This document shows positions 5,343 through 62,083 of a DNA stretch of 64,000 nucleotides, in pieces. Source of the stretch: Candidatus Woesebacteria bacterium. GTDB lineage: Bacteria > Patescibacteriota > Microgenomatia > UBA8517. Position 1 is the stretch's first letter. Each line of letters opens with the position of its first letter. The translations under genes were made by a program, and so were the position numbers. The notes beneath the pieces were generated by a model. That model was not told the DNA's origin. It searched no databases and was given only the letters and a program-made list of their open reading frames with translations. The stretch lies in contig CP055307.1 of assembly GCA_013374835.1 (NCBI GenBank), positions 10,447-74,446 on the forward strand, written 5' to 3'.

Positions 5343-5416
5343 TAATTAAGTATAACAATGACAACAAGAAAAATTAAAAAAATATAAGTTTGATTTTTTT
5401 AAATCTAAACTAAAAT

Positions 5417-6907: not shown

Positions 6908-6932
6908 AATTTATGGTAACATAAAATTAAAA

Positions 6933-9295: not shown

Positions 9296-9319
9296 ACATT
9301 AAGACTTTATTCAAATATA

Positions 9320-11705: not shown

Positions 11706-11731
11706 TAAAATCTAAAAGACTGCGACAATGC

Positions 11732-24173: not shown

Positions 24174-25361
24174 ATGAAAAATATTAAAAATATAGAAAAA
24201 AATTTTCTAAATTACCTTAATGAAATGAATCTTTCGAGATCTACAATTAAGAATTACAAATCTGATATTTACTACTTTATAAAATGGTTTAATTACAAAT
24301 ACCCTAGAGTTTCTTTGTCGAAATTTAGTTTATCTGCGATTGACGAATATATTAATTTTCTTCGCTCTTCAAAAACTTCTTATGTAACTATTAATAGAAG
24401 GCTTACTACTCTTAGACATTTTACTAACTTTTTGGTTGAGAGAGGTTTTATTGATCGCAATTTTATGAAGCAATACAGAAATGTGGATAAACGATCTGAA
24501 AGTGATGTACGTAGACTTTTGGGTTTTTTCGAAGAAGATCTCCTTTATAAAGGAGTCAGTAGGAAAAGTGCAAAAAATTATAAATCGGATATAAAGTCTT
24601 ATATTCGCTGGCTATACAAACTCGGTATGGGACAGGAGGATATAAATACTAAAACCTCAAACGCATATCATAAAGAGCTTTTAAAAATCAGGGCCGAAAG
24701 AAGCGTTAAGAGAAGTAGAACCTCTGTCAATAGATTTATAAGGTGGTTTAACAAGGACGAAGACGGTTTTGTACTCAACGGTGTAAAAAGAGAAAAAGAA
24801 ATTACAGATTTGCCAAAAAAGCCTACCGTCCCCATAATACTATTTATAACAGCAATTATTCTTCTAATTACACAAATCGTAATCAGCACTGATCCTGCTG
24901 CTCCCCCAGCTACTGTATCGGCGCTTGACAGTTATTCTTTGGATACCGTTGAGAGTGAGACATCTGAAAAAGAGCTTTATTCAAACTTAAAAGACAAAAA
25001 AATATCTATAATCCTTGATGATAAGACCCTTCCGCATTCCGTTACTGCCAATGCGCATTTTAATGAGGAGAATATGCTCGTTCTTGAGCTTGTGGATGAA
25101 GAGTCACCGGACAGCGTGCTTAATATGAGCGAAAGCGGTAATTATATTGCCGGTGTGTCTTTTATACCAGCGGGTAAAACTGAATACTTTATATATAATC
25201 CAGAAGTAAAAGAGAATTCGTTTATTTATATTACGCCAAAAACCTCTAGTGAAAACCAAATAATTTATGTCAAAAACCAGGGTGAGGGTTTTTTTGTAGC
25301 AGCTATAGATAAGCCTCTTAACAGACAGCTTGATTTTAACTGGGTATTGATTAATATATAA
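24174..25361 (+). CDS. membrane-anchored protein with two tandem phage-integrase-N-terminal SAM-like (core-binding) domains and no catalytic domain
   Basis: '…LSRSTIKNYKSDIYYFIKWF…' and '…VSRKSAKNYKSDIKSYIRWL…' are two copies of the Phage_int_SAM-type helix bundle. A TM helix (PIILFITAIILLITQIV) follows, then a C-terminal beta-rich domain. No R..H..R..Y tyrosine-recombinase catalytic residues are present. Confidence 0.5.
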   Translation: MKNIKNIEKNFLNYLNEMNLSRSTIKNYKSDIYYFIKWFNYKYPRVSLSKFSLSAIDEYINFLRSSKTSYVTINRRLTTLRHFTNFLVERGFIDRNFMKQYRNVDKRSESDVRRLLGFFEEDLLYKGVSRKSAKNYKSDIKSYIRWLYKLGMGQEDINTKTSNAYHKELLKIRAERSVKRSRTSVNRFIRWFNKDEDGFVLNGVKREKEITDLPKKPTVPIILFITAIILLITQIVISTDPAAPPATVSALDSYSLDTVESETSEKELYSNLKDKKISIILDDKTLPHSVTANAHFNEENMLVLELVDEESPDSVLNMSESGNYIAGVSFIPAGKTEYFIYNPEVKENSFIYITPKTSSENQIIYVKNQGEGFFVAAIDKPLNRQLDFNWVLINI

Positions 25362-34042: not shown

Positions 34043-35944
34043 TTATCTTCTTATATTCAGTGAATGGCTTATGCCAATATAGTAGATGTTATCTTTATTA
34101 AGAGACGCATCCCCTAAACCAATTGCTAAGCTTCTAAACTGATTATTGTACTCTTTTACTGAATAAGCTATTTGATCTGTTAACTTAACTAAACTTACAC
34201 GATTATTAACAATATCAACAAGCTGACCCAAATATTCCTCCCACGAATCCAAATAAAACGATATCCACGGCGATATTTTGGTACCAGGAATTAATTTCGG
34301 CAACACATACGTTTGAGTGTCTCGATCAACATCCACCCTGCCTCCCGAGATAATTTTCTCTTTTGGTATCGACACTGCAATTAAATAATCTTTACCGCTA
34401 TCCTTGTGGCGCGCAAGCATTAGGATGTCAATAACTTCAAGCTCACCTCCAAAATTAGCTTCTTCTATGATTTGATTTGTTTCAGGATCCCTAAGAAAAA
34501 GTCCTGTTATTACCCTCTCCCCCAAAAAACCAACAAAGGCACCATCGGGTGAAATTGAAATGTCTTTATAATACGAGTAGTTTTCAGACTTAAAAAGACT
34601 AACACCATCATGATAACCATCTGATTTAATCTGATAACTCTTTCCATCTACCACTATACTTCCTGAAATCACATTACGATCAACTCCAGAATAATACACC
34701 TTTGTATCTGGAGTTACAGCATATTCCCCCTGCCAAGGTCTTCCAAGATATTCTCCGTTGGTTCCAAATATTTCATTTGAATAGCCTAAAAATATTTCCT
34801 CCGACTCCCTAAAATAGTTAAAGCTATTAATATTTGGACCTACTGCTACTTTTCTTAAGGGGATATTTCCCTGAAACAGAGAGTAAGCAACCCAGGCGTA
34901 TTCTACCTGATCTTCTGGTGTGGGAGTTTCTACAAGGATCCATGTATAGCCTTCATTTGACACCTCTATCATTTCATCTTCGTTTATAATTGCCCCTAAA
35001 AGGTCTAAATTATCAGGTATTCCCTCAGGGTTGGGGATCACAACTTTATCGTTTATCTGCCCCAAGATTTGAGAGGTGGTATTTGGCTCTTTTCTTAAAT
35101 TTACATTTGCTCCTTGTGAGAAGGTTCTGAGTGTAAGAAAGTATGCAGCTTCCTTAGTAATTATTTGTGATATGTTTCCATCTTTGTCTACCTCCACAGG
35201 GATGAGTGATCCATTGGCTGGGAATTCAAAGGATCTGTTTTCATTTATGTATCCACATCTTGTCAGAGCTTTTAGTAGATCCTCCTTGAGTGTATCGTCT
35301 AATTTTGCAATGACTATTTTTGATCCTTCCTCCGCTGGATTAATCCAATGAAGGTCTCCTTCACTTCCATAAAATATTACTCCACCACTTTTATATTCTA
35401 CTTCATTCCAAGTAAAATCATTTTGTGCTTCAAGTACAACTGAAACTTTTTTGATTTCAGAATCTTTGTTTGTTTGGGTAAGAAGCTTTATGGACAGTTC
35501 TCCACCCCAGTTTTTTGCTTCTTCCTGCAAAAAAAGAACTCTTTCAAAACTTTGGGAAAGATCTGGATTGGTGATATTTTGAAGTTTTTCCATCTTTTCC
35601 GGATCAAGAGATACTGCCATCAGGGTGTCTGGAGCTTTCCTTGTTACTATCTCTGAGACAAGTCTTGATTCTTCATCCTCAAGGCTGATTGATGGTATTT
35701 CAGGAAGAAATTCTTTTTGAATTTGATTTTCTTTTGTTTCAAAGTCTGGAATAACTACATCACCCATTTGAGAAGCTCTAAACTCATCTACTGAACCTAT
35801 GTTTTGTGTGTGGGAATTTAATGAATTTGGATATGACTTTTGGGGATTTTTTTGATATTTTTCAGAAATAGGTCCAAGTGTTGAAGAAGAAAAAAATACA
35901 CCTGTAAAAAGAGCATCCACAGTCCCTTTAAACCTATCTTTCAT
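34043..35944 (-). CDS. paralog 1 of a three-member family of ~640-aa secreted SH3b-domain proteins
   Basis: Shares 'EAQNDFTWNEVEYKSGGVIFY' and the SH3b-like 'GANVNLRKEPNTTSQILGQI…GYTWILV' block with 36396..38312 and 39490..41433. Preceded by the conserved leader. Confidence 0.55.
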   Translation of the reverse strand: MKDRFKGTVDALFTGVFFSSSTLGPISEKYQKNPQKSYPNSLNSHTQNIGSVDEFRASQMGDVVIPDFETKENQIQKEFLPEIPSISLEDEESRLVSEIVTRKAPDTLMAVSLDPEKMEKLQNITNPDLSQSFERVLFLQEEAKNWGGELSIKLLTQTNKDSEIKKVSVVLEAQNDFTWNEVEYKSGGVIFYGSEGDLHWINPAEEGSKIVIAKLDDTLKEDLLKALTRCGYINENRSFEFPANGSLIPVEVDKDGNISQIITKEAAYFLTLRTFSQGANVNLRKEPNTTSQILGQINDKVVIPNPEGIPDNLDLLGAIINEDEMIEVSNEGYTWILVETPTPEDQVEYAWVAYSLFQGNIPLRKVAVGPNINSFNYFRESEEIFLGYSNEIFGTNGEYLGRPWQGEYAVTPDTKVYYSGVDRNVISGSIVVDGKSYQIKSDGYHDGVSLFKSENYSYYKDISISPDGAFVGFLGERVITGLFLRDPETNQIIEEANFGGELEVIDILMLARHKDSGKDYLIAVSIPKEKIISGGRVDVDRDTQTYVLPKLIPGTKISPWISFYLDSWEEYLGQLVDIVNNRVSLVKLTDQIAYSVKEYNNQFRSLAIGLGDASLNKDNIYYIGISHSLNIRR

Positions 35945-36049
35945 ATTATCCTATAATACCATAAATGGGTAGGATTTCCAGTATGAACATTCTTAACCGA
36001 AGCTCTACTTGGCCTTAATTCAAAACCCACTTTAATTATTATACTACAG
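35945..36049 (-). promoter_or_regulatory. conserved promoter / ~85-nt 5'UTR element (copy 1 of 3)
   Basis: About 90% identical to 38313..38418 and 41434..41577. The minus strand reads '(c)TGTAGTATAATAATTAAAGTGGGTTTTGAATTAAGGCCAAGTAGAGCTTCAG…TATAGGATAAnATG', with a -10 TATAAT and an AGGA SD. Confidence 0.5.
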
Positions 36050-36350
36050 TGGCAGGATTGCTTATTCTGCAGGAACCGGTCCAGTAATCACAGCCACTGG
36101 TATTGGGCATAATATTACAATCCGGATATACTCCACAACCTCTGTTTTGAGAGCCTTTGCAGTTATAATATTGGTGCGTAACCTCGTTATAGTCACAATT
36201 CCAATAACATGTAAATCCAGAACCTGTACATGTTTGAGCATTGATATCTTGGGGTATCAAAAAAAATACTAATAAAAAATAAAAAGAAAGAAGTGTGAAT
36301 AATAAAAATGTAATGTTAGTTTTCTTATCAACAAAAAGATAAGATGTCAT
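36039..36350 (-). CDS. small secreted Cys-rich protein (10 Cys), copy 1
   Basis: The signal peptide is followed by 'AQTCTGSGFTCYWNCDY…CKGSQNRGCGVYPDCNIMPNTSGCDYWTGSCRISNP'. The 3' coding DNA is near-identical to 39079..39468, and the 3' end abuts and overlaps leader copy 1. Confidence 0.6.
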   Translation of the reverse strand: MTSYLFVDKKTNITFLLFTLLSFYFLLVFFLIPQDINAQTCTGSGFTCYWNCDYNEVTHQYYNCKGSQNRGCGVYPDCNIMPNTSGCDYWTGSCRISNPATVV

Positions 36351-36395
36351 AATTATAATAATATTAAACTACTGAAGCTAAAAAAAGCAATGCTG

Positions 36396-38312
36396 TTAGC
36401 CAATAAGAACAAGATGTCGTTCACGGATCATTTTTGATTTTGTTCCTGCTGGGGTTACTACCTCTTGTTCATCTCCGATTACATTCTTTACTACGCTTTC
36501 TATCTCATTAACAAACCCTCCGACAACCGGCTTAAGTTTTACAAGTTCACCTCCATAACCTAAGCTATAAGCCATAAAAATGAAGAGTACATCCTCTGAA
36601 AGATAACTTTGAATCAATAAATTGCCATAATCATTCCGATTACTTGGTATTTCATATAATATTCTGCCCAACACATAATTTTGTTTCTTTTCAGGCTTAT
36701 AGCCATTTGCCACAGTATTATAACCCCAAGTAATTGTTTTATAAACATCCGCGGTCATATCCGAAGCTATTTGAATAAATAATCTATTGTTAGGATTTCC
36801 CATCCTAAATCTAGGGTGATCTTTAAAGGTGTCAATTATCCTGTTTATTAACTCCTCATCGTGATTGAATCTAGATCTTGACAAATCCTCCTGCCCCCTT
36901 AGGGTTCTATTTGCAAGATGAGTTGGATTTCCCTCTAGTCTCGCGTTTATTCCAAGCTCTGGAATAATAAGTGTATCAAGCGTTGTAACCCAACCGCTTT
37001 CAACATTTTGCCCCATCCCAGGCCTCCAAACAAATACTTTTCCATCCATGATCTTTACATATCCCCTTAGTTCATGGGAGTATTTTCCCTCTGCTTCATC
37101 TATTACTTCTTGGGGTGTATATTCTGTAACAGTTTCTTTTGTTCTCCTGTATTCTTCTTCTGTTATTCCGTATCTCTCCCATGGAGCTTCACCTGAATCA
37201 AAGTAGTATATTTCTTCTAAGGTTTTGAATCTTTTTTCATCAAGATTGTCAATTTTTATCCCCAAAACTTGAAATTCTCTTTTTAGTGTTATCAGGTTTC
37301 CTGCGGTCCAGCCTATTTTTCCATCTTTTGTCATTACCATTACCCACTCATTTACGCCCACTTTTTTGACTAACATCCTATTTTCTTCATCTTCTACTAC
37401 ACCATCTTCTCTTAAGGCAGGTGGTACTAAAGTGGGATCAACAATTATATTATTGTCTATTGAATTTTCTAATATGTTCTCATTTGTTGTTGTATCTGGG
37501 GTTTTTCTTATCCTTACTCCCTGGGTTCCTTGATACATTTGGCTCACAAAGTAAAAGCTTGCGTCTTTTGTTCTGACTTGTATGAGTTGCCCTTGCAAGT
37601 CTGTCTCTAAAACAACCCAACTACCGAGTTCAGGGAGTTTTAGTGTGTGGTAGCGATTGTATCCGGCAAGATCAAAGCCCTGCTTTATTTTGTCTACCAA
37701 ATCCCGATCTAGCTTTGTTATTGAAATATTTGTTTCTATGCCAAGATGCTTTGAGGGAACTATTGCACGAGCAAGTCCTTCACGGTCTATGAAAATTTCT
37801 GAGTCTTTTTTGATACTTACCGGGTTTCCTTCGCTATCAAGCCATTCAAAATCATTTTCGGCTTTGAGCATTATCCCCACTTGTTGGTTCTTAATATATA
37901 CTGCATCCTGATTTACCTCGGATTCATAGATAATATTTAGGTTTAGATTGCCTCCAAAACTTTCTGCATCCTTAATGGCTTCAAGTGCTGCTTGTGTGTA
38001 AGCCCAGAGCTCACTTCCCTCTTCAAGTTTAATATCTGGTACTAAGATGCCGTCTTCGCTCTCACTAAGATTGACCTTTTGAATAATCAAGCCTTCTTTA
38101 TCCACCCCTGAAGTTTCTAAAATAGACTCTGCCTCGGATTTGCGGAGAGCATGTTTGTCTATTGAGAGCAAGTCGTGAGAGAGCTTTTCTTGCTGATCTA
38201 GAAATTCTGGTCTAAGGAAAACTGAAGCGGTAGCAGCAGCAATAAGTTTTAAAAATTCACGCCTAGTTAGGTTTGCGCCAAACTCCTTCTTGGCCAAATT
38301 GTCAGGAGTCAT
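36396..38312 (-). CDS. paralog 2: Tat-signal (TRREFLKL) secreted SH3b-domain protein
   Basis: Twin-arginine motif 'LTRREFLKLIAAATASVFL'. The block 'PWERYGITEEEYRRTKETVTEYTPQEVIDEAEGKYSHELRGYVKI' is almost identical to the one in paralog 3. Confidence 0.6.
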   Translation of the reverse strand: MTPDNLAKKEFGANLTRREFLKLIAAATASVFLRPEFLDQQEKLSHDLLSIDKHALRKSEAESILETSGVDKEGLIIQKVNLSESEDGILVPDIKLEEGSELWAYTQAALEAIKDAESFGGNLNLNIIYESEVNQDAVYIKNQQVGIMLKAENDFEWLDSEGNPVSIKKDSEIFIDREGLARAIVPSKHLGIETNISITKLDRDLVDKIKQGFDLAGYNRYHTLKLPELGSWVVLETDLQGQLIQVRTKDASFYFVSQMYQGTQGVRIRKTPDTTTNENILENSIDNNIIVDPTLVPPALREDGVVEDEENRMLVKKVGVNEWVMVMTKDGKIGWTAGNLITLKREFQVLGIKIDNLDEKRFKTLEEIYYFDSGEAPWERYGITEEEYRRTKETVTEYTPQEVIDEAEGKYSHELRGYVKIMDGKVFVWRPGMGQNVESGWVTTLDTLIIPELGINARLEGNPTHLANRTLRGQEDLSRSRFNHDEELINRIIDTFKDHPRFRMGNPNNRLFIQIASDMTADVYKTITWGYNTVANGYKPEKKQNYVLGRILYEIPSNRNDYGNLLIQSYLSEDVLFIFMAYSLGYGGELVKLKPVVGGFVNEIESVVKNVIGDEQEVVTPAGTKSKMIRERHLVLIG

Positions 38313-38418
38313 GTTATCCTATAATATCATAAAATGAATAAATTTTCCAGTTTGAAGATTCTTAACTGAAGCTCTACTTGGCCTTAATTCAAAACCCACT
38401 TTAATTATTATACTACAA
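38313..38418 (-). promoter_or_regulatory. conserved promoter / 5'UTR element (copy 2 of 3)
   Basis: See copy 1; it lies immediately upstream of the paralog-2 ATG. Confidence 0.5.
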
Positions 38419-38458
38419 GGTGGGGACAGCCCGTGGTGAGATGAATTATAAAAAGAAA

Positions 38459-38941
38459 TCAAGAGGAAACTGGCAGTTCAAACCAAAAACTGCTCCCCTT
38501 ACCCGGTTCGGATTCAACACCAATATTCCCTTTAAATTTCTCAATCAAAAGCTTTGAGATATAAAGCCCCAATCCACTGCCTATTGTCTTGCCGACTTTT
38601 GATTTAACTCTATAAAACTTGCTAAAAAGCTTTTTTTGCTCCTCCTTTGATATACCCATTCCAGTATCAATAACTTCAAGCCTTACTATTTTCGAACCTT
38701 TATTGAATAACTTTATGGTGATTCCACCCTCCTCTGTATATTTAGTAGCGTTGCTTAAGAAATTAATAACCACCTCATGGAGTCTATCACGATCAACACG
38801 TACACGGTCCCGCAAATCGCTTTGGACTTCTAATCTAAACTCAAGATTCTTTCTCTCCGCTTTTTCATTTCTAAGTTGACCTAAAATAGACTCTTTCTCC
38901 TCTAAAAACATCTCTTTGAACGATTCCTTTATTCCCCACAT
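38459..38941 (-). pseudogene. sensor histidine kinase fragment: HATPase_c domain only, lacking the H-box and sensor
   Basis: N, G1 and G2 boxes are visible ('FLSNATKYT', 'VIDTGMGI', 'GSGLGLYISK'). The upstream in-frame sequence '…KYITRLVENLESRFDQISFNDTAT' has no HisKA phospho-acceptor His and hits a stop. Confidence 0.55.
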
Positions 38942-39078
38942 AGTGGCGGTGTCATTAAAACTTATCTGATCAAACCTTGATTCAAGATTTTCAACTAATC
39001 TTGTGATGTATTTTTATAATCGGTTCTGTTTTTATATACAAAAATCAAAGGGCCAATGTTTCCGTTTTCTATATCTGA

Positions 39079-39468
39079 TCAAAGTCCAAAATATCTTTCT
39101 TTAATATATTTACTGCATGAACCGCAGCCGCCGCTTCCACCCGGAGATGTGGTAGGTGCGGCAGTGGGAGCTGCTGTTGGTGCGGGTGTAGGATTGCTTA
39201 TTCTGCAGGAACCGGTCCAGTAATCACACCCACTTGTATTGGGCATGATTCCACAATCAGGATATATTCCACATCCTCTATTTTGGGAGTTACAGTTTGT
39301 CCAACGACAAGTGTGGTCACAGACTTGTCTGCACCCAAAGTAGCAAATAAACCCCGGTCCTGTGCAAGATTGAGAGTAAACATTTTTAGGTTCAACATAA
39401 AATAACAAAAGCGCACAAGACATAAAAAACAAAGATAGGTATTTTTTCATCAAATCCGTCCTAAGCAC
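39079..39468 (-). CDS. small secreted Cys-rich protein, copy 2, with a PAPTAAPT/GGSGGCGSCS tail
   Basis: 'SQSCTGPGFICYFGCRQVCDHTCRWTNCNSQNRGCGIYPDCGIMPNTSGCDYWTGSCRISNP' is followed by 'TPAPTAAPTAAPTTSPGGSGGCGSCSKY'. Confidence 0.6.
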   Translation of the reverse strand: MLRTDLMKKYLSLFFMSCALLLFYVEPKNVYSQSCTGPGFICYFGCRQVCDHTCRWTNCNSQNRGCGIYPDCGIMPNTSGCDYWTGSCRISNPTPAPTAAPTAAPTTSPGGSGGCGSCSKYIKERYFGL

Positions 39469-39489
39469 AATATATCAAAGAATCAGAAG

Positions 39490-41433
39490 TTAATCTACAA
39501 TAACTAAACTTTTAGGTCGGACAGCATATGCATGCATCATTAAATCAAGATCGCCCAATACATTTGAGATATACCCTTCAATCTTTGAATTAAACCTGTA
39601 TTTTACCGGTTTTCCACCCCAAATAACATTTTTTGGATCGCCCAAATCACCAGTTAAAAATTGGTATGTTGAAATCATGATCATCTCGGAAAACGCAGTT
39701 TCTGCAATACCTTCTTTTTGGTTATCGTATTCTTCTTTTAATCCATAAAAAAGCCTTCCTGTTGCGAATTTATCAGTATAATATGCATCAATCTTAAAAG
39801 CTTCTAGCGCGTCTCCTAGGTTTGGAGTTAGTATAATAGGTTTATATATATCAACATCTTCATCTAATTCTGTTACTATCTGAAAAAATATTTTACTTCC
39901 CTCCCTAAATCTTGTGTTGCGATTAATCTTTCTGCTTTGATTTTCTAACAACTCTTTCTCAAAATTTAACATTTCTTCCTCCAAGAATCTTATATTATTA
40001 AGGTCTGCCAGTCCTTTCTGACTCTTTGAACGCTTACTCAACTCTATATCTCTACCTTCTAAGATTATCTCGAGCCAACCATCTTTTTTGTTATGGAATT
40101 TAAAACTTCCTAACTGCTTATACCATCCGTTCTTGCCTGCTCCTGGTCTCCAAACCATGACATCAGAGGTTTCTTCATCGATTTTTACATATCCCCTTAG
40201 TTCATGGGAGTATCTTCCCTCTGCTTCACTTATCACTTCTTGGGGTGTGTATTCATTTACAGTTGCCTTTGTTTCAAGGTATTCTTCTTCTGTTATCCCA
40301 TATCTTTCCCAGGGCTTATCTTCAAAATCAAAGTAATTTATTTCATCAATGCTTCTGAAAATTGACTCCCTTGGTATTTGAGGCCCGGCTGCTACATTTA
40401 CAGTATCTGGATTTTTTACATCTAAAGCACTCCAGCCATACCGTCCATCGCTGTACCGGACTAAGTACCATTTATATCCATTGGCTTGTGTTACAAAAAC
40501 TTTACTTTCTTTATATGTGTCTACAGAAACATTTCTGGGATCTACGTTTCCAGGTAACTCAGGAGGTAGTCCAGTGGGTGTAACTATTGATGTATTGGCA
40601 TCCAGGGTTTGTGTTATTATGTTTTGATTATTTGAAGTATTTGGTTCACTTCGAACATTAAGCTCAACCGGACCAACAAACACTCTCTTTGTTAAAAATA
40701 CAGCTTCTCCTTCGGTAATTATCTGGACAATATTTCCTTCTCCATCTAATTCCGCCATTATCCAAGAGCCGGCTCCTTCGGTTATTAGTTCTCCATATCC
40801 GAGTTCTTTGTATTTTGCTTTCAACTGGGAGTCTGTCTGTTCATTAAGTTTTATGGTTTTAATTTTTGATCCAGGGAGAAATCCGGATTCTTTGATGAAG
40901 TGTAAACTAAATTCTCCACCATCTTTCTCTCTTATGATAATGGGTTCGCCTGCCTTTACATCTCTTTCTCCCATCTTTAGATCGCTTTTTGCCCTCATTA
41001 TCACAGCTGCTTCTTTTGGAGGGTTTACCCCATCGTAATCAAAGAGTATTTCCAGCCCCATGTCGGCACCTTCTATACGCAGGTCGTTTATCCAACCCAG
41101 TGCATAATCAATCTGTTCTTTTAAGCCTTGGGTTTCAAACTGAATTTCGGGAGTTAAATACCCATTTAGATTTTCCTCGAGTTTAAGTTCTCTGAAAGTA
41201 AGCGCAGGCTCTATTGGCCTGTTATACTCAGGCTCTATCAATCTGGCGGCATCGGTATCTGTAAGATTAAATTTCTCAATCGATGCCTGAACTTGAATCT
41301 CGGATTGCCTTTCCTTTATCTCCAAACCTGGAAGCGCAGTCATAGTAAGTGCTGAAGCCGCACCCCATTCCAAGACTTGGCGCCTTGTTAGCTTTGTATC
41401 AAACACCTTCTCTACCAAATTATCAGGTGTCAT
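39490..41433 (-). CDS. paralog 3: Tat-signal-like secreted SH3b-domain protein
   Basis: 'LTRRQVLEWGAASALTMTALPG', with a shared C-terminal block and SH3b-like 'VELNVRSEPNTSNNQNI…GYKWYLVRYSDGRYGWSA'. By manual counting the start codon lies about 1 nt from the ORF-track coordinate. Confidence 0.6.
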   Translation of the reverse strand: MTPDNLVEKVFDTKLTRRQVLEWGAASALTMTALPGLEIKERQSEIQVQASIEKFNLTDTDAARLIEPEYNRPIEPALTFRELKLEENLNGYLTPEIQFETQGLKEQIDYALGWINDLRIEGADMGLEILFDYDGVNPPKEAAVIMRAKSDLKMGERDVKAGEPIIIREKDGGEFSLHFIKESGFLPGSKIKTIKLNEQTDSQLKAKYKELGYGELITEGAGSWIMAELDGEGNIVQIITEGEAVFLTKRVFVGPVELNVRSEPNTSNNQNIITQTLDANTSIVTPTGLPPELPGNVDPRNVSVDTYKESKVFVTQANGYKWYLVRYSDGRYGWSALDVKNPDTVNVAAGPQIPRESIFRSIDEINYFDFEDKPWERYGITEEEYLETKATVNEYTPQEVISEAEGRYSHELRGYVKIDEETSDVMVWRPGAGKNGWYKQLGSFKFHNKKDGWLEIILEGRDIELSKRSKSQKGLADLNNIRFLEEEMLNFEKELLENQSRKINRNTRFREGSKIFFQIVTELDEDVDIYKPIILTPNLGDALEAFKIDAYYTDKFATGRLFYGLKEEYDNQKEGIAETAFSEMIMISTYQFLTGDLGDPKNVIWGGKPVKYRFNSKIEGYISNVLGDLDLMMHAYAVRPKSLVIVD

Positions 41434-41577
41434 ATTATCCTATAATATCATAAAATGAATAAATTTTACAGTATGAAGTTTTCTTTGAGGTGAGCCTTCC
41501 CTCCCCCGATTAAAACGGGGCTTGACGAAGCATCTATATAATCCAAAACCCACTTTAGTTATTATACTACAAGGTGA
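41434..41577 (-). promoter_or_regulatory. conserved promoter / 5'UTR element (copy 3 of 3; carries a ~45-nt insertion)
   Basis: See copies 1 and 2. The inserted segment reads 'ggtgagccttccctcccccgattaaaacggggcttgacgaagc'. Confidence 0.45.
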
Positions 41578-41584
41578 GAAGGGA

Positions 41585-42074: not shown

Positions 42075-42308
42075 TTATCCGATATTTGGATATTGTCGAG
42101 TCACTCGACCAGTGTTCTGGTTTACTTCATGGATGCCCCAGCAATTACCACTCTGGTCAGTGTCGAACGATCTGCGATAGTTCGAGCTTGGATCGTAAGA
42201 CACAACATGCCAATGGTCGCCTCTGTTATAGGCATTGCTGTGATTGAAGCTCCATCCACTCTGGTAAACAGTTATTCCTGGTCCTGATGGAAACACAGGA
42301 AAGGACAT
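42075..42308 (-). CDS. small hypothetical protein S1 (77 aa, from the ATG preceded by a GGAGG SD, not the TTG-extended ORF-track start)
   Basis: 'gagaaaggaggaaggcggATGtcc' reads SD-8nt-ATG, located at the 3' edge of repeat R1. No signal peptide. Confidence 0.45.
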   Translation of the reverse strand: MSFPVFPSGPGITVYQSGWSFNHSNAYNRGDHWHVVSYDPSSNYRRSFDTDQSGNCWGIHEVNQNTGRVTRQYPNIG

Positions 42309-42315
42309 CCGCCTT

Positions 42316-42617
42316 CCTCCTTTCTCAGATCTCAACTGGCGCAACTGCCAGCTAGTCTGCCCGGGATTGGGCGGAGGAGATTGGCTTTCTTGGAGTTTTT
42401 TAGCTTTACTTCTTTGGCTTTTTCTACCTTAGTGGCTTTTTTATGTTTGGCCTCTATTCCTCCCGCTTTTGGGAGTCGGCCGGCTATACAAGCATGAAGT
42501 TAGAAAACAGGCCTTTGAAGTTTGAGCCTAAAACCCAAGCTTTTGAAGGTGCAAAAGCGAATTTCGCACGCTTTGGGAGGTAGATTAGCAGAAGAAGAAG
42601 AAGAAGAAGTCAAGGGG
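42316..42617 (-). repeat. R1: ~300-nt conserved structured element / long 5' leader (copy 1), containing a (GAA)6 tract
   Basis: About 88% identical over ~300 nt to 44178..44474. It has the same orientation and an SD+start codon at its 3' (minus-strand) end. Several conserved hairpins (CTGGC-AGTTGC-GCCAG, CTCCC-AAAAGC-GGGAG, AAAGCG-TGCGAAATT-CGCTTT) are present. Confidence 0.7.
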
Positions 42618-42619
42618 TG

Positions 42620-43840
42620 TTACCTGATATTTCTTGATATCAAATTTCCTGCTGCCACAGCATGGGGCAATGAATTAAAAGGCTTTAATACTATCTGATC
42701 ATCTAGTATATATAGCGGGTTTTCTTTCTGCTTTGCTCCTTTAAAACAACGGTTAAAAGTCTCTGCATATAATTTGCTTAAATTTTGGTTTGGGTTTTTA
42801 TAAATCTCAATCTCAAACAAAATCCTTCGAAATACTAACAAAAAATCCACGATCCTTGACTGGTATAGTCTATCGGATAAATTTCTTAACTCTTTGAACT
42901 CAATTTCATATGCCTCAACTTCAGCCTGATATTTTCCTTTTTCAAGAAGATCAATTTCGTTTTCAAAATTTTTTAAATAACTCAAAACATGACCAAGCTC
43001 ATGAATCAAAAATAAAGATTGGTGACGAACATTAAAATTATTGTTTATATATACATCAAAACCATCTTTTTTGCTGTTATAGATGGTATACGTTTTATCT
43101 GACATTAGAACATTTATTTTTGACCTAAATTTATTTAAAAGATTATATTTTTTAAACATATATTTTTTAACTTCATGAGGTGATCTTAGGGGAAAAGCCG
43201 GCAATAAACACACTAAACAGGGTTTATTAAAGATTGAATAAAAATCACGAGAAAAATCTGTTTTTGTAAGAATTTGATTATTTATGAAATCAATTATTTT
43301 ATCTACATTTATGATAAATTTATTGAAATCTGATAAAGGAATTTTGTATTTTTTCTTATAAAAATTTATAAATTCGGACCGATGTAAACTTTCAACTTCT
43401 TTTTTTCTGTTAACTAATAATTTTATAAATTTTTCTTCTATTTCAGTTAACGGCAGATCCAGTTCATCCCAGATTTTTTTCCTATCTTCAATTCTTTTGT
43501 CAAAGACTTCTTTATCAATTCTATTGGCTACTTCAGTAGGCAAAAGAAGAAAATAATCTGACATTGCTTTTTCATATTTACTATTGCCAGGATTAAAAAT
43601 ATCTAATTTCTTTAGTGTTTTTGTCACAAAATCTTTATCTATCGCTTCACGAATTCTGTGCTTTATGTATAAATTAATAGAGCATGTTTTTGGATCCCTT
43701 AAAATTTTGTAGTCTTTTTCAGCTTCAAATCCAGCATTCAAAACTAGATCTTTGATTTTTTTGGGATCAGAAAATTTAGTATGGATTTTATATTGAGGAT
43801 AATATTCTTTAAATATGTCATTTAAGTCTTGATTTCTCAT
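42620..43840 (-). CDS. cytoplasmic HExxH metallopeptidase-like protein
   Basis: 'LFLIHELGHVLSY' is an HExxH motif, and glutamates follow about 25 aa downstream ('EVEAYEIEF'). No signal peptide. The gene is flanked on both sides by the R repeats. Confidence 0.5.
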   Translation of the reverse strand: MRNQDLNDIFKEYYPQYKIHTKFSDPKKIKDLVLNAGFEAEKDYKILRDPKTCSINLYIKHRIREAIDKDFVTKTLKKLDIFNPGNSKYEKAMSDYFLLLPTEVANRIDKEVFDKRIEDRKKIWDELDLPLTEIEEKFIKLLVNRKKEVESLHRSEFINFYKKKYKIPLSDFNKFIINVDKIIDFINNQILTKTDFSRDFYSIFNKPCLVCLLPAFPLRSPHEVKKYMFKKYNLLNKFRSKINVLMSDKTYTIYNSKKDGFDVYINNNFNVRHQSLFLIHELGHVLSYLKNFENEIDLLEKGKYQAEVEAYEIEFKELRNLSDRLYQSRIVDFLLVFRRILFEIEIYKNPNQNLSKLYAETFNRCFKGAKQKENPLYILDDQIVLKPFNSLPHAVAAGNLISRNIR

Positions 43841-43950
43841 AGTTTTACAATTTTATTAAAATTAATGGAGAAAGAGTATAGCTAATATGCTATTTGGAGG
43901 GCTGGGACCCACTCTTTCTCCTTCCAGAAGTATTCGTTTAGGTCAACAAG

Positions 43951-44172
43951 CTAGGACCGCTCATCGCTTGAGACGTTCTCTGGGCTTTGACCACATCCAC
44001 CCGTTGAGCCCTGACTATTGCCAGAGGTTTCTTCAAAGCCTTTAGATGCAGAAATCGCATCTGCAGGATTCGTCTGAACAATGTGATCTGAGCCATAGTA
44101 GATTGTACGGTCAAGCTGCAATCCCCACTTGTCCGCAAGCTCTTGAGCTTTCGGCGAATACTTGTCGCTCAT
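43951..44172 (-). CDS. small hypothetical protein S2 (73 aa)
   Basis: 'ctgagaaaggaggagaagATGagc' reads SD-5nt-ATG at the 3' edge of repeat R2. Ser/Gly-rich C-terminus. Confidence 0.45.
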   Translation of the reverse strand: MSDKYSPKAQELADKWGLQLDRTIYYGSDHIVQTNPADAISASKGFEETSGNSQGSTGGCGQSPENVSSDERS

Positions 44173-44177
44173 CTTCT

Positions 44178-44474
44178 CCTCCTTTCTCAGAACTTAACTG
44201 GCGCAACTGCCAGCAAGTCTGTCCGAGATTGGGCGGGAGAGAGATCTTTCTTGGAGTTTTTTGGCCTTACTTCTTAGGCTTTTTCTATCTCAGTGGCCTT
44301 TTTTGTGTTTAGCCTGTTTCTCCTCCCGCTTTTGGGAGTTGGCCGATTTAGATAGGCATGAGGTTAGAAAATAGGCCTTTGAAGTTTTGGCCTAAAAAAC
44401 CCAAGCCTGTGAAGGTGCAAAAGCGAATTTCGCACGCTTTGGGAGGTAGATTAGCAGAAGAAGAAGTCAAGGGG
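44178..44474 (-). repeat. R2: ~300-nt conserved structured element / long 5' leader (copy 2), with a (GAA)3 tract
   Basis: See R1. Confidence 0.7.
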
Positions 44475-44477
44475 AGG

Positions 44478-57962: not shown

Positions 57963-58170
57963 ACCCAGACTGTGTTAACCACAATCAGGGTAGCTGGTTT
58001 AAATTTTAAAAAGGTGCGAATTCAGATTGTTATCTGAAATCTAAAGAGAAAGGTACAAAGAAAAGTCTAATGACCGATTCGTGCAAAGTAAGCTTAATTC
58101 CTTACGGAACTTCCACTTCCTGCCGATCAACCTGATGTTCTTTCAGGAGTCTAAGAGCCCTCATCTTGGG

Positions 58171-58209
<39 letters not shown>

Positions 58210-58394
58210 AGGAATGTAGCTACCCGGCGCTGCCGCTGACGCGACAACCGGCACACTAGGGATTCCCCCTTCCTGGTCCTCTCGTACTGAGGAAAGCTCC
58301 CCTCAAGGCTCCAACGCACACACCGGATAGAGTCCGAGCTGTCTCGCGACGCTCTGAACCCAGCTCACGTACCACTTTAATGGGCGAACAGACC

Positions 58395-58427
<33 letters not shown>

Positions 58428-59013
58428 GTGAGCCGACATCGAGGTAGCGAACCGCGCCGTCGATATGGACTCTCGGGCGCGACTACTCTGTTATCCCCGG
58501 GGTAACTTTTATCCGTTAAGCCCCATCCATTCCCACAATGAGATGGGGGATCACTAAGACCTGCTTTCGCACTAGCTCCACCCGTCGGTGTCGCTATCAA
58601 GCTGGCTTATAGCTTTACCCTTAATCCGCCATTTCCATCGGCGGAAAGCCAACCTTTGTACCCCTGCGTTACCTTTTGGCAGGGTACCGCCCCAGTAAAA
58701 CTGCCCATCTGACACTTTTCCTGAACCCGTCTTCAGGGCCCTTAGGTAAGCCTTTTAATCTTCGAAGGGTGGTATCACACTGGCTCCCGATTAAATCGGG
58801 ATCCCACCTATTCTTGACAATCGAGGACTAAAGGAGGCAATGCCAGACTACAGTAAAGCTCCACGGGGTCTATTTGTCCTGGTGTGTGTAGGCCGCGTCT
58901 TCACAGCCACCGCAATTTCGCCGGGTGGATTTTCAAGACAGTTGTTAGCTCGTTACGCCTTTCGTGCGGGTCTAAACTTACTAGACAAGGAACTTCGCTA
59001 CCGTAGAACAGTT

Positions 59014-59762
59014 CATTTTTGTTACATTGAATACTTAAATATTCCTTAAGTATTCAAAGATTCTGTCATTTCTGCAGAATTCTCCGACTCTCGCCGGAGA
59101 TCGGACTATATCATCCCCACTTGGTATAAAACTCTGTGGAGGCTAACGTATAGTCTCTGGGGATTCCAAAACATCACTAATTGAATATTTTCTTTTTCTT
59201 CCTTTACCTTTGTTAAGCTTCTCTCTTATTTCAAGCAGTTTCAAAAGCCCATCTTTTTCAAGATGTTTTTTGTCATACATTATTTTCACAGCTTTTTTAA
59301 AAAGAGAAAAATTTCTCTTTTTAGTGTTTGAAAAAAAACTATATTTGGTAAAGAAAGGTATTATTTTTTCCTGAATTGCGGTTGGATTAGTAACATCAAA
59401 AGAATATAAACCATCTTTTCTTTGTTTGATAATTCCACAACCTAAATAACGTTTCATCAAAGCAAGAATTGTCCTTTCTCTTTGAGAAACATTAAAAGAT
59501 AAAACAGGTTGCCATCTTTGCTTATAATCGATTTTGTGGCGGAGTGAGATATTAAAACTTCCTTCTCCGTCAACAAAACCTGCAAAATACCAACCAATTT
59601 TTTCAGGAACTTTTATTCTGGACTGTTTTGGTCTTTCCTGCTGATTATCTCTATTCATCTGATTGTCACTGCTATTAAGGTAAATTTAGCTTAACAGCAG
59701 TACAGATGACCTGTCAAGATTTCCCAGCATATAGTTAGCTTTTACAACTACTATTTAATCTA
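59014..59762 (-). mobile_element. group-I-type intron in 23S rRNA, inserted between positions equivalent to E. coli U1917 and A1918 (helix 69), carrying a homing-endonuclease ORF
   Basis: Exon sequence '…GGCAGCAGUAACUAU' | intron | 'AACUGUUCUACGGUAGCGAAGUUCC…' aligns with E. coli 'GGCCGUAACUAU|AACGGUCCUAAGGUAGCGAAAUUCC'. The upstream exon ends in U and the intron ends in G (omega-G). The 749 nt between have no 23S similarity. Confidence 0.75.
59143..59658 (-). CDS. LAGLIDADG family homing endonuclease (single-motif, I-CreI-like homodimer type), intron-encoded
   Basis: A single 'YFAGFVDGEGSF' LAGLIDADG motif followed by the typical basic DNA-binding scaffold. 171 aa, located inside the 23S intron. 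Confidence 0.8.
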   Translation of the reverse strand: MNRDNQQERPKQSRIKVPEKIGWYFAGFVDGEGSFNISLRHKIDYKQRWQPVLSFNVSQRERTILALMKRYLGCGIIKQRKDGLYSFDVTNPTAIQEKIIPFFTKYSFFSNTKKRNFSLFKKAVKIMYDKKHLEKDGLLKLLEIREKLNKGKGRKRKYSISDVLESPETIR

Positions 59763-60588
59763 ATAGTTACTGCTGCCGTTTACCGGAGCTTCGGTTCAAA
59801 GCCCTGTGCAAAGCACGGACAGATCCCCTTAACTTACCGGCACTGGGCAGGCGTCAGCCCGTATACTTAAGATTTTCTCTTTTGCACGGACCTGTGTTTT
59901 TGATAAACAGTCGACTAACAATCATTAGCTGCGGTCCCGCCATGGGCGGGACAGGACATCTTGCGAACTTACGTCCAGCTTGTTTGCCTAGTTCCTTAAA
60001 AATCCTTCTCCCGATCGCCTTAGTATTCTCTACCTACCCACCTGTGTTGGTTTACGGTACGGCTTATTTGGGCACTCACTGCGAACCTTTTCTTGCAGGC
60101 TATTAACCAGAATCACCCTACTCTCGTAAGGCTTTGCACCACCCCGATTAAACGCAAGAGCGGATTTTCCATCTCTCACTACCGAGACTTCTGCACTTTA
60201 CTTCACGAAAAAGCTCTGATTTTTTCACCTTGTCAGTCCCCAGCTACCCCGCATAGCGGGGTTTGGCGCACCCAAACAAGTACTGGAATTTTAACCAGCT
60301 ATCCATCGGCTACGCCATATGGCCTTACCTTAGGAGCCGACTAACCCCTGGCAGACGAACTTCACCAGGGAAACCTTGGGTTTTCGGCGGTCCGGATTCT
60401 CACCGGACTTGTACGCTACTCATACCGGCATTCTCACTCCCATCCGTTCCACCTAACTTTACAGTTCGGCTTCACCACGAATGGGACGCTCCCCTACCAC
60501 GTCCCGCTAAGCGGGACATCTCTAGCTTCGGCACTTGGCTTATCCTCGATAAATCTTCGGCGCACGCTCTCGGTCGACCAGTGAGCTG

Positions 60589-60639
<51 letters not shown>

Positions 60640-61154
60640 AAGAGAGTGTACTTCCTTTCAAACTTAGTCAAGATTTAGAGGCCTTAGCTGAGAGTCTGGG
60701 TTGTTTCCCTTTTGTCGTACGAGCTTAGCCCCGTACGGCTGTATGCTAAACATCCTTATCAGTATTCGGAGTTTGGTTGATCACGATTGCTTTCGCTCTC
60801 GTGACCATCCAGTAGCTCTACCCCTGATAAGTTTTTATTTAACACGGTCCCTATAGACCTTTCGGGGAGAACCAGCTATCTCCAGGTCCGATTGGCATAT
60901 TACCGCTATCCACAAGTCATCCGAGCAAATTGCAACTTACACCGGTTCGGGCGTCCGCCACGCTTTCGCGTAACCTCCCCCTGCTCATGGATAGATCACC
61001 TGGTTTCGGGTCTGCCACACAGTACAAAATCGCGCTATTAACACTCGCTTTCGCTATGCCTTCCCCTTTTAGCAGGGTTAAGCCGCACTGTGAGACAACT
61101 CGCCGGTTCATTCTTCAATAGGCACGAGATCACCCGCTCGCAGAGCAGGAAGTT

Positions 61155-61285
61155 CCAAGATCTAATAATCAAATTGTAAACAAATTCCAACTCCAAAATT
61201 ACAAGCTTGACTTCAAACTTTCGCTATTTAAGGTTTGTAATTTGGTTATTGTTTGTGATTTGATATTTGTGATTTGAAATTTCCT
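61155..61285 (-). other. AT-rich IVS-like expansion in 23S domain I (helix-25 region)
   Basis: A ~130-nt, >75% AT insertion between conserved blocks corresponding to E. coli ~530-560. It forms a long imperfect hairpin (CAAATTACAA…TTGTAATTTG). Confidence 0.5.
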
Positions 61286-61764
61286 GTTCTACGAACAGGC
61301 TCTCTCGGTTTGTCCGCAAACAGTTTCAGTTACTATTTCACTCCCCTCCCGGGGTGCTTTTCACCTTTCCCTTACGGTACTAGTTCACTATCGGTCACCA
61401 ACCATATTTAGCCTTGGAGGATGGTTCCCCCAGATTCATCCGAAGTTGTCGATCGGATTACTCAGGATACCCATAGGCGCTTTGCAAGGATTTCGTGTAC
61501 AAGACTTTCACTTTCTATGGCCAACCATTCCAGATTGTTCCACTATCCCCAAAGCTACCACGTCTGGGTCCTACAACCCCCCGATAGCCTCCCGAAGGAG
61601 ATCATCGAGGTTTGGGCTTTTGCCTTTTCGCTCGCCGCTACTTGGGCAATCTTTAATTTAATTTCTTTTCCTCACCTTACTTAGATGTTTCAGTTCAGGT
61701 GGTACCCCACTTCATCGCTATATACCCTGCATTCTATGCACAAATCACGCTCTGCTGCGACGAA

Positions 61765-61870
61765 AAATACAAGATCACAAATTGTAAATTACAAACAATA
61801 CTCAATTTACAAAATTAAAAAACCAAAACTTCATATTTTGAATTTGTAATTTTTGCAAAGCTAATTACTT
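61765..61870 (-). other. AT-rich IVS-like expansion near the 23S 5' end (helix-9/10 region)
   Basis: About 105 extra AT-rich nt between 'TTAGATGTTTCAGTTC' and 'GGGTTTCCCCATTCGG' relative to E. coli. It forms a hairpin (ACAAATTGTAAATTACAAA…TTTGTAATTTTTG) and shares the 'CAAATTGTAAA' core with the other insertion. Confidence 0.45.
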
Positions 61871-62083
61871 ATGAACAGAATGCAAGGTATTTTTACGATG
61901 AGTTACTCCGAGATAAATCGGAGTGGGTTTCCCCATTCGGAAACCGCCGGATCACAGGATCGTGGCTCCTACCCGGCGAGTATCGCCGCCATGTGCGTCC
62001 TTCATCGGTGGTTGATGCCAAGGCATCCACTGTCTGCGTTGTGTAGACTTTCGACCTTTCTCTTCAGATGTCAAAGAGCAAAG

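Follow-up and report, generated by a model that had tools for sequence, protein, structure and literature searches.

The question raised by this locus is why three neighbouring, divergent genes of a tiny uncultured Woesebacteria-like bacterium should each be preceded by nearly the same piece of non-coding DNA. A first-pass annotation had noticed the repeated block before the three start codons and had read it as an ~85-nt leader under selection as a cis-acting structured RNA. The block is indeed present at all three places, on the '-' strand; the RNA reading fares poorly, and the block is instead probably a family-specific promoter cassette that acts as DNA and is kept alike by recombination and selection.

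Architecture of the repeated module

The block (called the module here) measures 112–146 bp and lies directly before each of three paralogs on the '-' strand of the window, by which is meant the whole 64-kb stretch of DNA that was analysed. Searched with an nhmmer model of the block, the window yields exactly three copies (E 6e-27 to 2e-33): copy 1 (35945..36056, short type, E 8e-30, alignments A1 and A3) directly upstream of paralog c1, copy 2 (38313..38425, short type, E 2e-33) directly upstream of c2, and copy 3 (41434..41579, long type, E 6e-27) directly upstream of c3, all on the '-' strand. An independent repeat search recovers all three copies (D5, D6 and D7), and two module sub-patterns match only the same three sites in the window, where shuffles expect 0. 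Exact-match scans of genome and metagenome collections returned seven stretches, all at the paralog family or at a slot linked to a histidine-kinase (HK) gene, and across all loci examined the module occurs only upstream of family genes or at this HK-linked slot. Its edges are identical in 10 of 10 copies despite differing contexts; copy 1 adjoins, at its 5' edge, a truncated Cys-rich ORF that takes its TAA stop from within the TATAAT of the module, and copy 2 begins 33 nt past the stop of a truncated histidine-kinase gene. This remnant, upstream of module copy 2, retains the HATPase domain only (38459..38941, '-' strand); in L005, L006 and L011 the corresponding position holds the full-length gene (533 aa).

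The identity of ~90% originally claimed for the three copies holds in two blocks, a 5' block of 38 nt and a 3' block of 25 nt that are 89–96% identical across all three, and not overall, where identity is 86% for copies 1 and 2 (95/110) and, over ungapped columns, 82% for copies 2 and 3 and 74% for copies 1 and 3. Between the two blocks lies a segment that differs in kind. What had been described as a 45-nt insertion in copy 3 is a replacement, in which a GC-richer long-type middle segment (41480..41538, '-' strand; CCCCG-N7-CGGGG) stands in for the short-type middle, with 62 nt in the long type vs 29 nt in the short type and a net gain of 33 nt. In other strains (L003, L009) the long-type allele of copy 3 precedes further members of the family, and short and long middles are interchangeable at one locus between strains (L010 vs copy 3 of the window). 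The middles of two long subtypes are ~87% identical, and the segment is thus less constrained than blocks A and B.

The genes behind the module are paralogs c1 (633 aa, 34043..35944), c2 (638 aa, 36396..38312) and c3 (647 aa, 39490..41433), all on the '-' strand and all without a match in Pfam and NCBIfam searches. The N-termini of c2 (LTRREFLK) and c3 (LTRRQVLE) are twin-arginine-signal-like. Many members of the family have twin-arginine-like N-termini. The family has 21 matches among 1.84 billion representative proteins, and an AlphaFold model of a paralog, built on a 9-sequence alignment, has a mean pLDDT of 54, too low to support a fold search; these paralogs are a rare, fast-evolving, mosaic family of predicted secreted proteins. 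That their coding sequences have diverged far more than the DNA before them, as the annotation had also claimed, is borne out: pairwise identity among c1, c2 and c3 is 25–30% for the proteins and 42–50% for the coding nucleotides, and four-fold-degenerate sites, at 35–48% identity vs 31% expected by chance, are near saturation. A neutral recent duplication would leave the module no more alike than neighbouring synonymous sites, and the identity between copies 1 and 2 has P = 4e-17 under the synonymous-site rate, which speaks against such a duplication.

The structured-RNA reading and a probable proximal promoter

Greater conservation in a leader than in its coding sequence need not imply an RNA element, and this locus serves as a warning to that effect. 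The structured-leader explanation supposes that transcription starts at the upstream TATAAT and that the resulting leader of 88 nt (short) or 121 nt (long) is a cis-regulatory RNA (a riboswitch, a thermosensor, or an sRNA or protein binding site) controlling AGGA as ribosome-binding site. Although TATAAT and the next 25 nt are invariant in 10 copies, as is AGGA, and although the 5' and 3' blocks pair with each other in MFE folds, Rfam gives no match in the window at gathering scores and none in the module when 10 kb and 161 nt are searched at E<=10, and folding energies of four copies compared with shuffled sequences are not significant (z = -1.26, -1.72, -0.83 and +0.58). Single-sequence folds of module sub-parts are likewise not significant, nor is the fold of the long-type middle. 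In the alignment of the leaders, compensatory changes number 0 among 22 named pairs in three candidate helices and 0 among 35 RNAalifold pairs, with power limited by the fact that only ~22 columns vary. A neighbouring ~300-nt repeat, with copies taken from the window and relatives, has 9 covarying pairs and provides a positive control for covariation.

The hairpin on which the RNA reading had partly been founded, CAGUU…AACUG, is not a conserved feature of the module. A candidate of the form CAGTT-N11-AACTG exists in copy 2 (38348..38368, '-' strand), where its 3' arm overlaps the -35 element of the proximal promoter described below, and it is weakened to CGGTT...TACTG in copy 1 (35979-35999, '-' strand); it belongs to the short type only, its 5' arm being absent from copy 3 and all long alleles, and the middle segment that should carry it can be exchanged at one and the same locus. 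A distant lineage dispenses with the 5' block and keeps the proximal promoter only, and the most variable stretch of the module coincides exactly with the spacer of that promoter. Many putative promoters of this genome, like the upstream TATAAT, lack a -35 element or TG, which speaks for a start there; even so, a structured leader is an unlikely account of the conservation. What stands of the proposal that the duplicated unit included its own regulatory module is a discrete module, conserved far beyond the coding sequence, that contains promoter elements and travels with the family; what is not supported is its identity as an RNA leader.

In the promoter cassette that we favour, the 3' 45 nt of the module can be read as a sigma70-type extended -10 promoter (P2) made up of TGGAAA, a 17-nt spacer, TRTG-n-TATTAT and AGGA. 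A -35-like hexamer, a spacer within 16–18 nt and a TG one base before the -10 hexamer are all found there. On the '-' strand, P2 of copy 2 (38321..38349) has TGGAAA (38344-38349), a 17-nt spacer and TG-A-TATTAT (38321-38329); that of copy 1 (35953-35980) has TGGAAA, a 16-nt spacer and TG-G-TATTAT; and that of copy 3 (41442-41470) has TGTAAA as its -35. A consensus scan calls TGGAAA and TATTAT with upstream TG in copies 1 and 2, the -35 itself matching the consensus at only 3–4 of 6 positions. Across 10 copies, variation affects all nine columns in the 5' part of the spacer, as against 3 of 12 around the -35 and 2 of 19 in the extended -10 together with AGGA. In this model TGGAAA and TGATATTAT would be the elements that drive each paralog.

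The -10 hexamer of P2 ends 8 nt before the ATG, a geometry that predicts leaderless or near-leaderless mRNA, and each paralog would most likely be transcribed in this form from the predicted P2 start. Hexamers that resemble a -10 box and end 5–10 nt before the ATG are enriched among 37 other window genes (13 vs ~4 per bin, P=3e-4), and leaderless or near-leaderless mRNA appears common in this organism. The AGGA directly after the -10 hexamer (38317..38320, 35949-35952 and 41438-41441, '-' strand) had been called a Shine-Dalgarno (SD) sequence. Its invariance is real, but its position is fixed relative to the -10 box and not to the ATG, from which it lies 4–8 nt away in different copies, and the majority of window genes have no SD. 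AGGA may be a discriminator, and it could serve as an SD for transcripts starting upstream.

Conservation of P2 extends beyond the lineage of the window. L012 and L013 are distant from that lineage (PilM 44% identical). In two or three of their family genes the core TGRTATTATAGGA stands 5–6 nt ahead of the ATG, together with a -35 element at a distance of 17 nt; the spacer is again variable, the upstream block is common to their own paralogs and different from that of the window, and the core is the sole module part conserved in this lineage. As an exact 13-mer, TGRTATTATAGGA occurs in the window only at the three modules and in L012 only at two family genes. Exact conservation across lineages exceeds the needs of a generic -10 and hints at an extra bound factor. 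An alternative source of the same conservation is an antisense promoter, since on the opposite strand the invariant TATTATAGGA gives a perfect TATAAT.

Exchange between copies, block A and the remaining alternatives

The N-terminal part of c3 is 35–39% identical to L012 and L013 proteins vs 24–28% to c1 or c2, and the divergence of the paralogs appears to predate the split between the lineage of the window and that of L012 and L013. If so, the identity of the modules within a lineage requires gene conversion or cassette copying. That gene conversion acts in the family is shown, at the level of sequence, by a patch in c2 (residues 384-428) that has 80% amino acid identity to c3 and in which, among the identical residues, the third codon position agrees in 20 of 24. 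Mosaics are also seen between strains: L003 and L009 have the same upstream gene and module and different CDS starts; L010 and L011 have a short module with a c3-type N-terminus; L005 and L006 have the HK gene and module followed by a non-homologous RR-motif protein; and in L011_602 a c3-type signal is joined to a c1-type body. The mechanism we propose is that cassettes are copied, or converted, among paralogs and between strains, with breakpoints falling at the cassette edges and inside them, while purifying selection would maintain the promoter elements. Selection on the module can be inferred from orthologs, in which its conservation is 3–10 times that of the coding DNA on its flanks; between copy 3 and L001, whose ortholog of c3 is 91.5% identical, it differs at 1 of 144 positions vs a local baseline of 8.4% (P=5e-5), and at 6 of 111 between copy 2 and L011 vs 13% (P=0.006).

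A single proximal promoter leaves block A, the 5' block, unexplained, and block A is the most conserved part of the module. In copy 2 it is CCACCTTGTAGTATAATAATTAAAGTGGGTTTTGAATTA (38385..38423, '-' strand), with TATAAT (38407-38412) lying between CCCAC (38420-38424) and GTGGG (38395-38399) and followed by TTTT; its counterparts, on the same strand, are at 36016-36052 in copy 1 and about 41539-41577 in copy 3. It is common to c1, c2 and c3, absent in L012 and L013, and near-invariant in 10 copies, varying only at the 5' edge, at one Y position and at one R position. The -10 TATAAT reported earlier for this region is real and invariant in all 10 copies, ~90–120 nt upstream of the ATG, and might drive transcripts with a long leader. 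An additional promoter upstream of P2, called P1, is the foremost of the possible roles for block A, and one that we hold tentatively. A role as insulating terminator for the gene upstream is less probable; the CCCAC/GUGGG stem is paired in 92% of cells, changes only from C-G to U-G and is followed by UUUU, but its loop is ~20 nt, its fold z is +0.44, and the consensus scan does not call a terminator in block A; GTGGGTTTT would be the candidate site. A role as operator is somewhat less probable again. Whatever block A does, its spacing from P2 would not matter, since alleles differ by 33 nt in this spacing; in the proposed cassette, block A would be joined to P2 by the exchangeable middle segment.

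The evidence of exchange invites the reading that the conserved cassette is primarily a recombination handle by which hypervariable secreted proteins could swap their promoters, signal peptides and gene bodies. The mosaic junctions seen between strains all fall within the module, at its edges or in the signal-peptide region; insertion of the module has truncated the Cys-rich gene of the window and, in L012, an ORF with a twin-arginine signal; contig ends often fall at genes of the family, and the 5' recombination sites of mycoplasma vsp/vpma offer a precedent (PMC2268961). All copies, however, are direct repeats with a promoter each, no flanking inverted repeats were found at the modules, and no recombinase is adjacent: Pfam and NCBIfam searches give none between 27.6 and 57.7 kb, and the nearest Xer-like ORF (24174-25361), in which the N-terminal domain only is detected, is 8.7 kb away. 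Homologous recombination, moreover, uses any conserved stretch, and junctions there are not proof of a dedicated function. A primary function as handle is improbable. A broader, speculative proposal, which we regard as doubtful, is that the cassette is the 5' handle of recombination-driven diversification of a lineage-restricted secreted family in Candidate Phyla Radiation (CPR) bacteria, with a variant in which block A drives a leaderless leader peptide of 26–37 codons. Were it true, promoters, signal peptides and protein halves would be reshuffled between tandem paralogs and strains by way of the conserved promoter block, with the signal-peptide region or without it, making the locus a functional analogue of mycoplasma surface-antigen loci that has no dedicated invertase, and in the variant the peptide would tune expression of the exported protein.

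It might also be argued that nothing beyond a generic core promoter has a selected function and that the identity of the copies is only a footprint left by tracts that were recently converted or duplicated. Conversion tracts do exist inside the coding sequences and the upstream blocks are lineage-specific; such a footprint, on the other hand, would have to produce the same edges in every copy and context and the conservation between orthologs described above, and both the short and the long allele persist across strains that differ by 8–13%. We give this explanation little credence.

Least probable of the four main alternatives, and in our view very improbable, is that block A is the promoter of a leaderless small ORF whose product is a regulatory leader peptide or is translationally coupled to the paralog. 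The frame begins with GTG 7 nt after TATAAT, a distance that fits the leaderless geometry of the genome, runs for 26 codons (short) or 37 codons (long) and stops at a TAG inside TATTATAGG, leaving 6 nt to the main ATG. Of 10 copies, 9 keep this frame open, the long and short forms differ by 33 nt, or 11 codons, and two of the few substitutions in its first 14 codons are synonymous. Yet a 1-nt deletion in copy 1 shifts the frame, substitutions show no third-position bias, the middle of the peptide changes radically (KFI, NLV, NPT, NSI), and in L012 two upstream blocks that are nearly identical apart from an indel are put into different frames by it. Few stops occur in any frame of the GC-richer long middle, and the probability of the open frame by chance, only ~0.02, is an estimate from a post hoc test. 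Three further candidates were set aside: a MITE-like element (the ends pair only through G-U wobbles, 7/10 at the DNA level, and the three copies in 64 kb are all at the family), an invertible promoter (no flanking inverted repeats were found), and the upstream HK of L005, L006, L011 and the window as regulator of the module (it is truncated in the window and absent from L012, with no response regulator adjacent).

Significance and comparison with known systems

To our knowledge, the signals for transcription and translation in CPR bacteria have hardly been studied by experiment. With a strong predicted extended -10 promoter abutting the start codon, the locus offers a clean, testable example in support of leaderless expression being widespread. 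The promoter has been conserved between lineages with a PilM identity of only 44%, and the locus suggests that in these small genomes promoter cassettes undergo concerted evolution even as the genes downstream diverge.

Like the Correia elements of Neisseria and the pneumococcal BOX and RUP elements, the module is a short, sharp-edged non-coding repeat that brings promoter signals to the gene downstream; unlike them, it has no terminal inverted repeats and is not dispersed, its copies occurring only at the family or the HK-linked slot. The resemblance to mycoplasma vsp/vpma loci is one of organization: a tandem family of exported proteins has a near-identical region of ~70–110 nt directly upstream of the start codon, present here in all family members, the signal peptide is partly in common while the remaining coding sequence is unrelated or very divergent, and rearrangements join at the common 5' region. 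In the mycoplasma systems (PMC2268961), the locus has a single promoter, genes in both orientations and a tyrosine recombinase gene (xer1/mbr), and switching is by site-specific inversion, whereas here promoter elements come with each copy, the copies are all direct repeats, and neither flanking inverted repeats nor an adjacent recombinase were found.

Promoters of leaderless mRNAs, with a -10 box ~7 nt before the start codon, are reported to have been mapped genome-wide in Mycobacterium and other bacteria (general background in PMC3898074 and PMC4633059). The -10 of P2, ending 8 nt before the ATG, similarly leaves no room for a functional 5' UTR, and this geometry is enriched among window genes; the module differs in having AGGA between the -10 and the ATG and a second conserved TATAAT ~90–120 nt upstream. 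There is a correspondence in sequence with extended -10 promoters of the sigma70/sigmaA type. Their consensus is TRTG-n-TATAAT (the '-16 region') with a G-rich discriminator. P2 matches this type in that AGGA comes after TATG-A-TATTAT and a weak -35 lies at 17 nt, and departs from it in that an exact 13-mer is conserved across lineages and restricted to one family, beyond what a housekeeping promoter would need.

A repeated module upstream of three divergent paralogs

Three tandem paralogs on the minus strand, c1 (34043-35944), c2 (36396-38312) and c3 (39490-41433), are each directly preceded by a copy of a repeated module, and an nhmmer model finds exactly three copies of it in the window, all likewise on the minus strand: copy 1 (35945-36056), copy 2 (38313-38425) and copy 3 (41434-41579). 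The three copies were also recovered by an independent repeat search, and two sub-patterns of the module match these three sites only (chance expectation, none); thus the repeated block conserved far beyond the coding sequence, as described in the first-pass annotation, is real and specific. Module identity is 86% for c1-c2, and 82% (c2-c3) and 74% (c1-c3) over ungapped columns, with a 38-nt 5' block and a 25-nt 3' block that are 89-96% identical. The coding regions share 42-50% nucleotide identity (25-30% in protein), and their four-fold sites are 35-48% identical vs 31% expected by chance. A neutral recent duplication, in which leader and synonymous sites would be equally alike, is therefore excluded, as the c1-c2 module identity lies far above that of the near-chance four-fold sites (P=4e-17). 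What had been described as an insertion in copy 3 is a replacement of the middle segment, 62 nt in place of 29 nt.

Pfam and NCBIfam searches of c1, c2 and c3 gave no match, and the family is rare: of 1.84 billion representative proteins, a full profile search matched 21; among species-representative genomes the module is carried only by a Candidatus Woesebacteria MAG (locus L005). An S/T-R-R-x-F/V-L motif stands at the N-terminus of c2, c3 and several distant relatives, and these N-termini resemble twin-arginine signals; by comparison with the published consensus they are putative Tat signals. P0002 appears to be a fourth family member, encoded outside the window and apparently on the same contig; it matches c1 at 92.6% identity over its first 391 residues, and its C-terminal half is c2-like.

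The window resembles a Candidate Phyla Radiation (CPR) genome. Its 23S rRNA gene (58058-62053, minus strand) extends ~1 kb beyond the bacterial model length and contains a LAGLIDADG homing-endonuclease ORF (59143-59658); the extra ~1 kb is an intron-type insertion, and such insertions are common in CPR rRNA genes. Elsewhere, at 3222-13378 (minus strand), five dockerin-domain proteins are encoded in a row, of which two also have polysaccharide-lyase or DUF362 domains; the regions upstream of 6933-8216 and of 11732-13378 visibly resemble each other.

Putative promoter elements and the question of an RNA leader

Pattern scans and protein look-ups yielded seven more independent module copies in related loci (L001, L003, L005, L006, L009, L010 and L011), where flanking genes show 80-97% DNA identity to the window. 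These copies sit directly upstream of a family member, save those of L005 and L006; there the module occupies the same slot, after the gene of a 533-aa histidine kinase, and is followed by a non-homologous RR-motif protein. The middle segment is short in c1, c2, L005, L006, L010 and L011 and long in c3, L001, L003 and L009. A column-variation profile of these ten copies (three from the window, seven from close relatives) is sharply segmented: the 16 nt preceding the module vary in every column; block A, the 5' part (CCACCTTGTAGTATAATAAYTAAAGTGGGTTTTGRATTA), is invariant bar its 5' edge and two positions; the middle segment is allele-specific; TCAWACTGGAAA varies in 3 of 12 columns, the following 9 nt in 9 of 9, and TTTTATGRTATTATAGGAT in 2 of 19. 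This segmented conservation reads as a promoter signature. A consensus scan, called independently of the profile, places in copies 1 and 2 a TGGAAA, a 16-17-nt spacer and a TG-n-TATTAT, whose TATTAT hexamer ends 8 nt before the ATG, and we consider it fairly probable that the 3' part of the module is a proximal promoter. The same geometry is enriched elsewhere in the window: across 37 other genes, hexamers resembling a -10 box are over-represented with their ends 5-10 nt upstream of the ATG (13 vs ~4 per bin, P=3e-4). SD-like motifs are few, and from these features a leaderless or nearly leaderless mRNA is predicted.

Family genes of a distant lineage bear on the age of these elements. Two lie in L012, at a syntenic locus downstream of pilM and pseudopilin genes (PilM 44% identical to that of the window), and one more in L013; each carries TGRTATTATAGGA 5-6 nt before its ATG and a -35-like TTGTAG or TTGTGG at 17 nt, the spacer being again variable. 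The promoter-core 13-mer was not found elsewhere in the window or L012. The two L012 copies have in common a ~76-nt GC-rich upstream block ending in a T-run, unlike the block of the window. Since the core is kept and the upstream blocks differ, only the proximal promoter is old, and the blocks further upstream are lineage-specific.

The first-pass annotation had seen in the module signs of a cis-acting RNA, an ~85-nt leader after the TATAAT with a conserved CAGUU/AACUG hairpin and an AGGA SD. The hairpin is not conserved: every long allele lacks its 5' arm, and the -35 box forms its 3' arm. Neither Rfam comparison (no match for the module) nor folding supports structure, the z-scores of four copies (-1.26, -1.72, -0.83 and +0.58) not being significant; nor does covariation in the alignment, with compensatory changes at 0 of 22 named and 0 of 35 RNAalifold pairs, a comparison of limited power as few columns vary. 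Structure is nevertheless detectable at this divergence, since a neighbouring ~300-nt repeat gives 9 covarying pairs, and a structured leader in the module is improbable.

In block A the inverted arms CCCAC and GTGGG enclose a perfect TATAAT, and TTTT follows; the arms pair in 92% of cells and change only from C-G to U-G. This TATAAT has no -35 and no TG, as is true of many putative promoters in the window. The alleles differ by 33 nt in the spacing between block A and the proximal promoter, so block A probably acts independently, whether as a second promoter, as a weak terminator or insulator, or as an operator. Starting at a GTG 7 nt downstream of the TATAAT is a frame of 26 or 37 codons ending in TATTATAGG. 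It is open in 9 of the 10 copies, but its substitutions do not follow a coding pattern and the copies in L012 disagree in frame, which speaks against a small ORF.

The neighbouring ~300-nt repeat

The non-coding ~300-nt repeat occurs twice in the window (42305-42603 and 44172-44475, minus strand; 88% identical) and in L001 (8833-9134), L009 (1140-1446, 3030-3328) and L010 (1573-1861, 3432-3735). The end of each window copy is GAGAAAGGAGGA, immediately followed by the ATG of a small ORF that differs between the two (77 aa from 42308 and 73 aa from 44172). Copies from the window, L001, L009 and L010 give 9 pairs with compensatory changes vs 0-3 in slid controls; 76 pairs are predicted (94.7% paired; MFE -92 kcal/mol, z -2.4), and the 5' CUUCUUCUUCUUCU stretch is predicted to pair with the SD region. 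Rfam holds no match to the repeat, which behaves like a structured RNA and is a candidate for a new SD-sequestering leader or ncRNA. The segment between the window copies (42603-44475) contains a 406-aa ORF (42620-43840), and L001 has a 717-aa Peptidase_C39_2 gene in its place; the repeats flank a variable cassette here.

Probable concerted evolution and mosaic genes

On the most probable reading, the module is a promoter cassette confined to this family, and its copies evolve in concert. The N-terminal part of c3 is 35-39% identical to the L012/L013 proteins vs 24-28% to c1 or c2, so that the paralogs appear to be older than the split from that lineage; if so, the block A common to c1, c2 and c3 would require later copying or gene conversion. 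Conversion is directly visible inside the genes: c2 residues 384-428 show 77-80% amino-acid identity to c3, third positions of identical residues match in 20 of 24, and the repeat search gives 81% DNA identity over the 180-nt patch of c2 and c3 whose core they form (37050-37229 and 40180-40359). Because the genes around it are saturated, this patch is a gene-conversion tract. Selection also acts on the module: between orthologous positions its conservation exceeds that of flanking coding DNA by a factor of 3-10 (differences at 1 of 144 positions vs an 8.4% baseline, P=5e-5, and at 6 of 111 vs 13%, P=0.006).

Several loci and genes are mosaics. L003 and L009 agree in the upstream gene and the module and part company in the coding sequence that comes next. 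In L010 the c3-type gene that a long module precedes in the window stands behind a short one. L011_602 consists of a c3-type signal and a c1-type body, and L003_652 and P0002 combine a c1-type N-half with a c2-type C-half. In the window the c1 module truncates a Cys-rich ORF, the stop codon of which falls within the TATAAT, and the L012 module cuts an ORF beginning with a twin-arginine-like signal motif. Recombination thus uses both the edges and the interior of the cassette.

Two small Cys-rich ORFs, after c2 (36039-36350) and c3 (39079-39468), both on the minus strand, share a 100-nt stretch with 89% identity (36054-36153, 39190-39289). In L001, from 12051 onward, this segment forms the N-terminal end of a long protein, and the 3' part of that protein corresponds to the Big_2 gene of the window; in the window the c1 module has cut the Cys-rich segment off. 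The histidine-kinase gene upstream of module copy 2 (38459-39121) is truncated, lacking ~1.2 kb that corresponds to L011 7746-8944 (sensor and HisKA parts); the HATPase domain alone is left, and it is joined to the tail end of the 293-aa gene that comes before it. In L012 a short ORF starting with the same twin-arginine signal (MKEINRRDFLKITAVG) follows each family gene (7869-8009 and 10578-10682), one of the two being cut by the next paralog's upstream block; these ORFs are leftovers of cassette shuffling in the distant lineage too.

The closest analogy to the module is offered by the vsp/vpma genes of mycoplasmas, with their shared 5' regions (PMC2268961); unlike that system, the module of the window has no adjacent recombinase, lies in direct orientation and brings a promoter in every copy.
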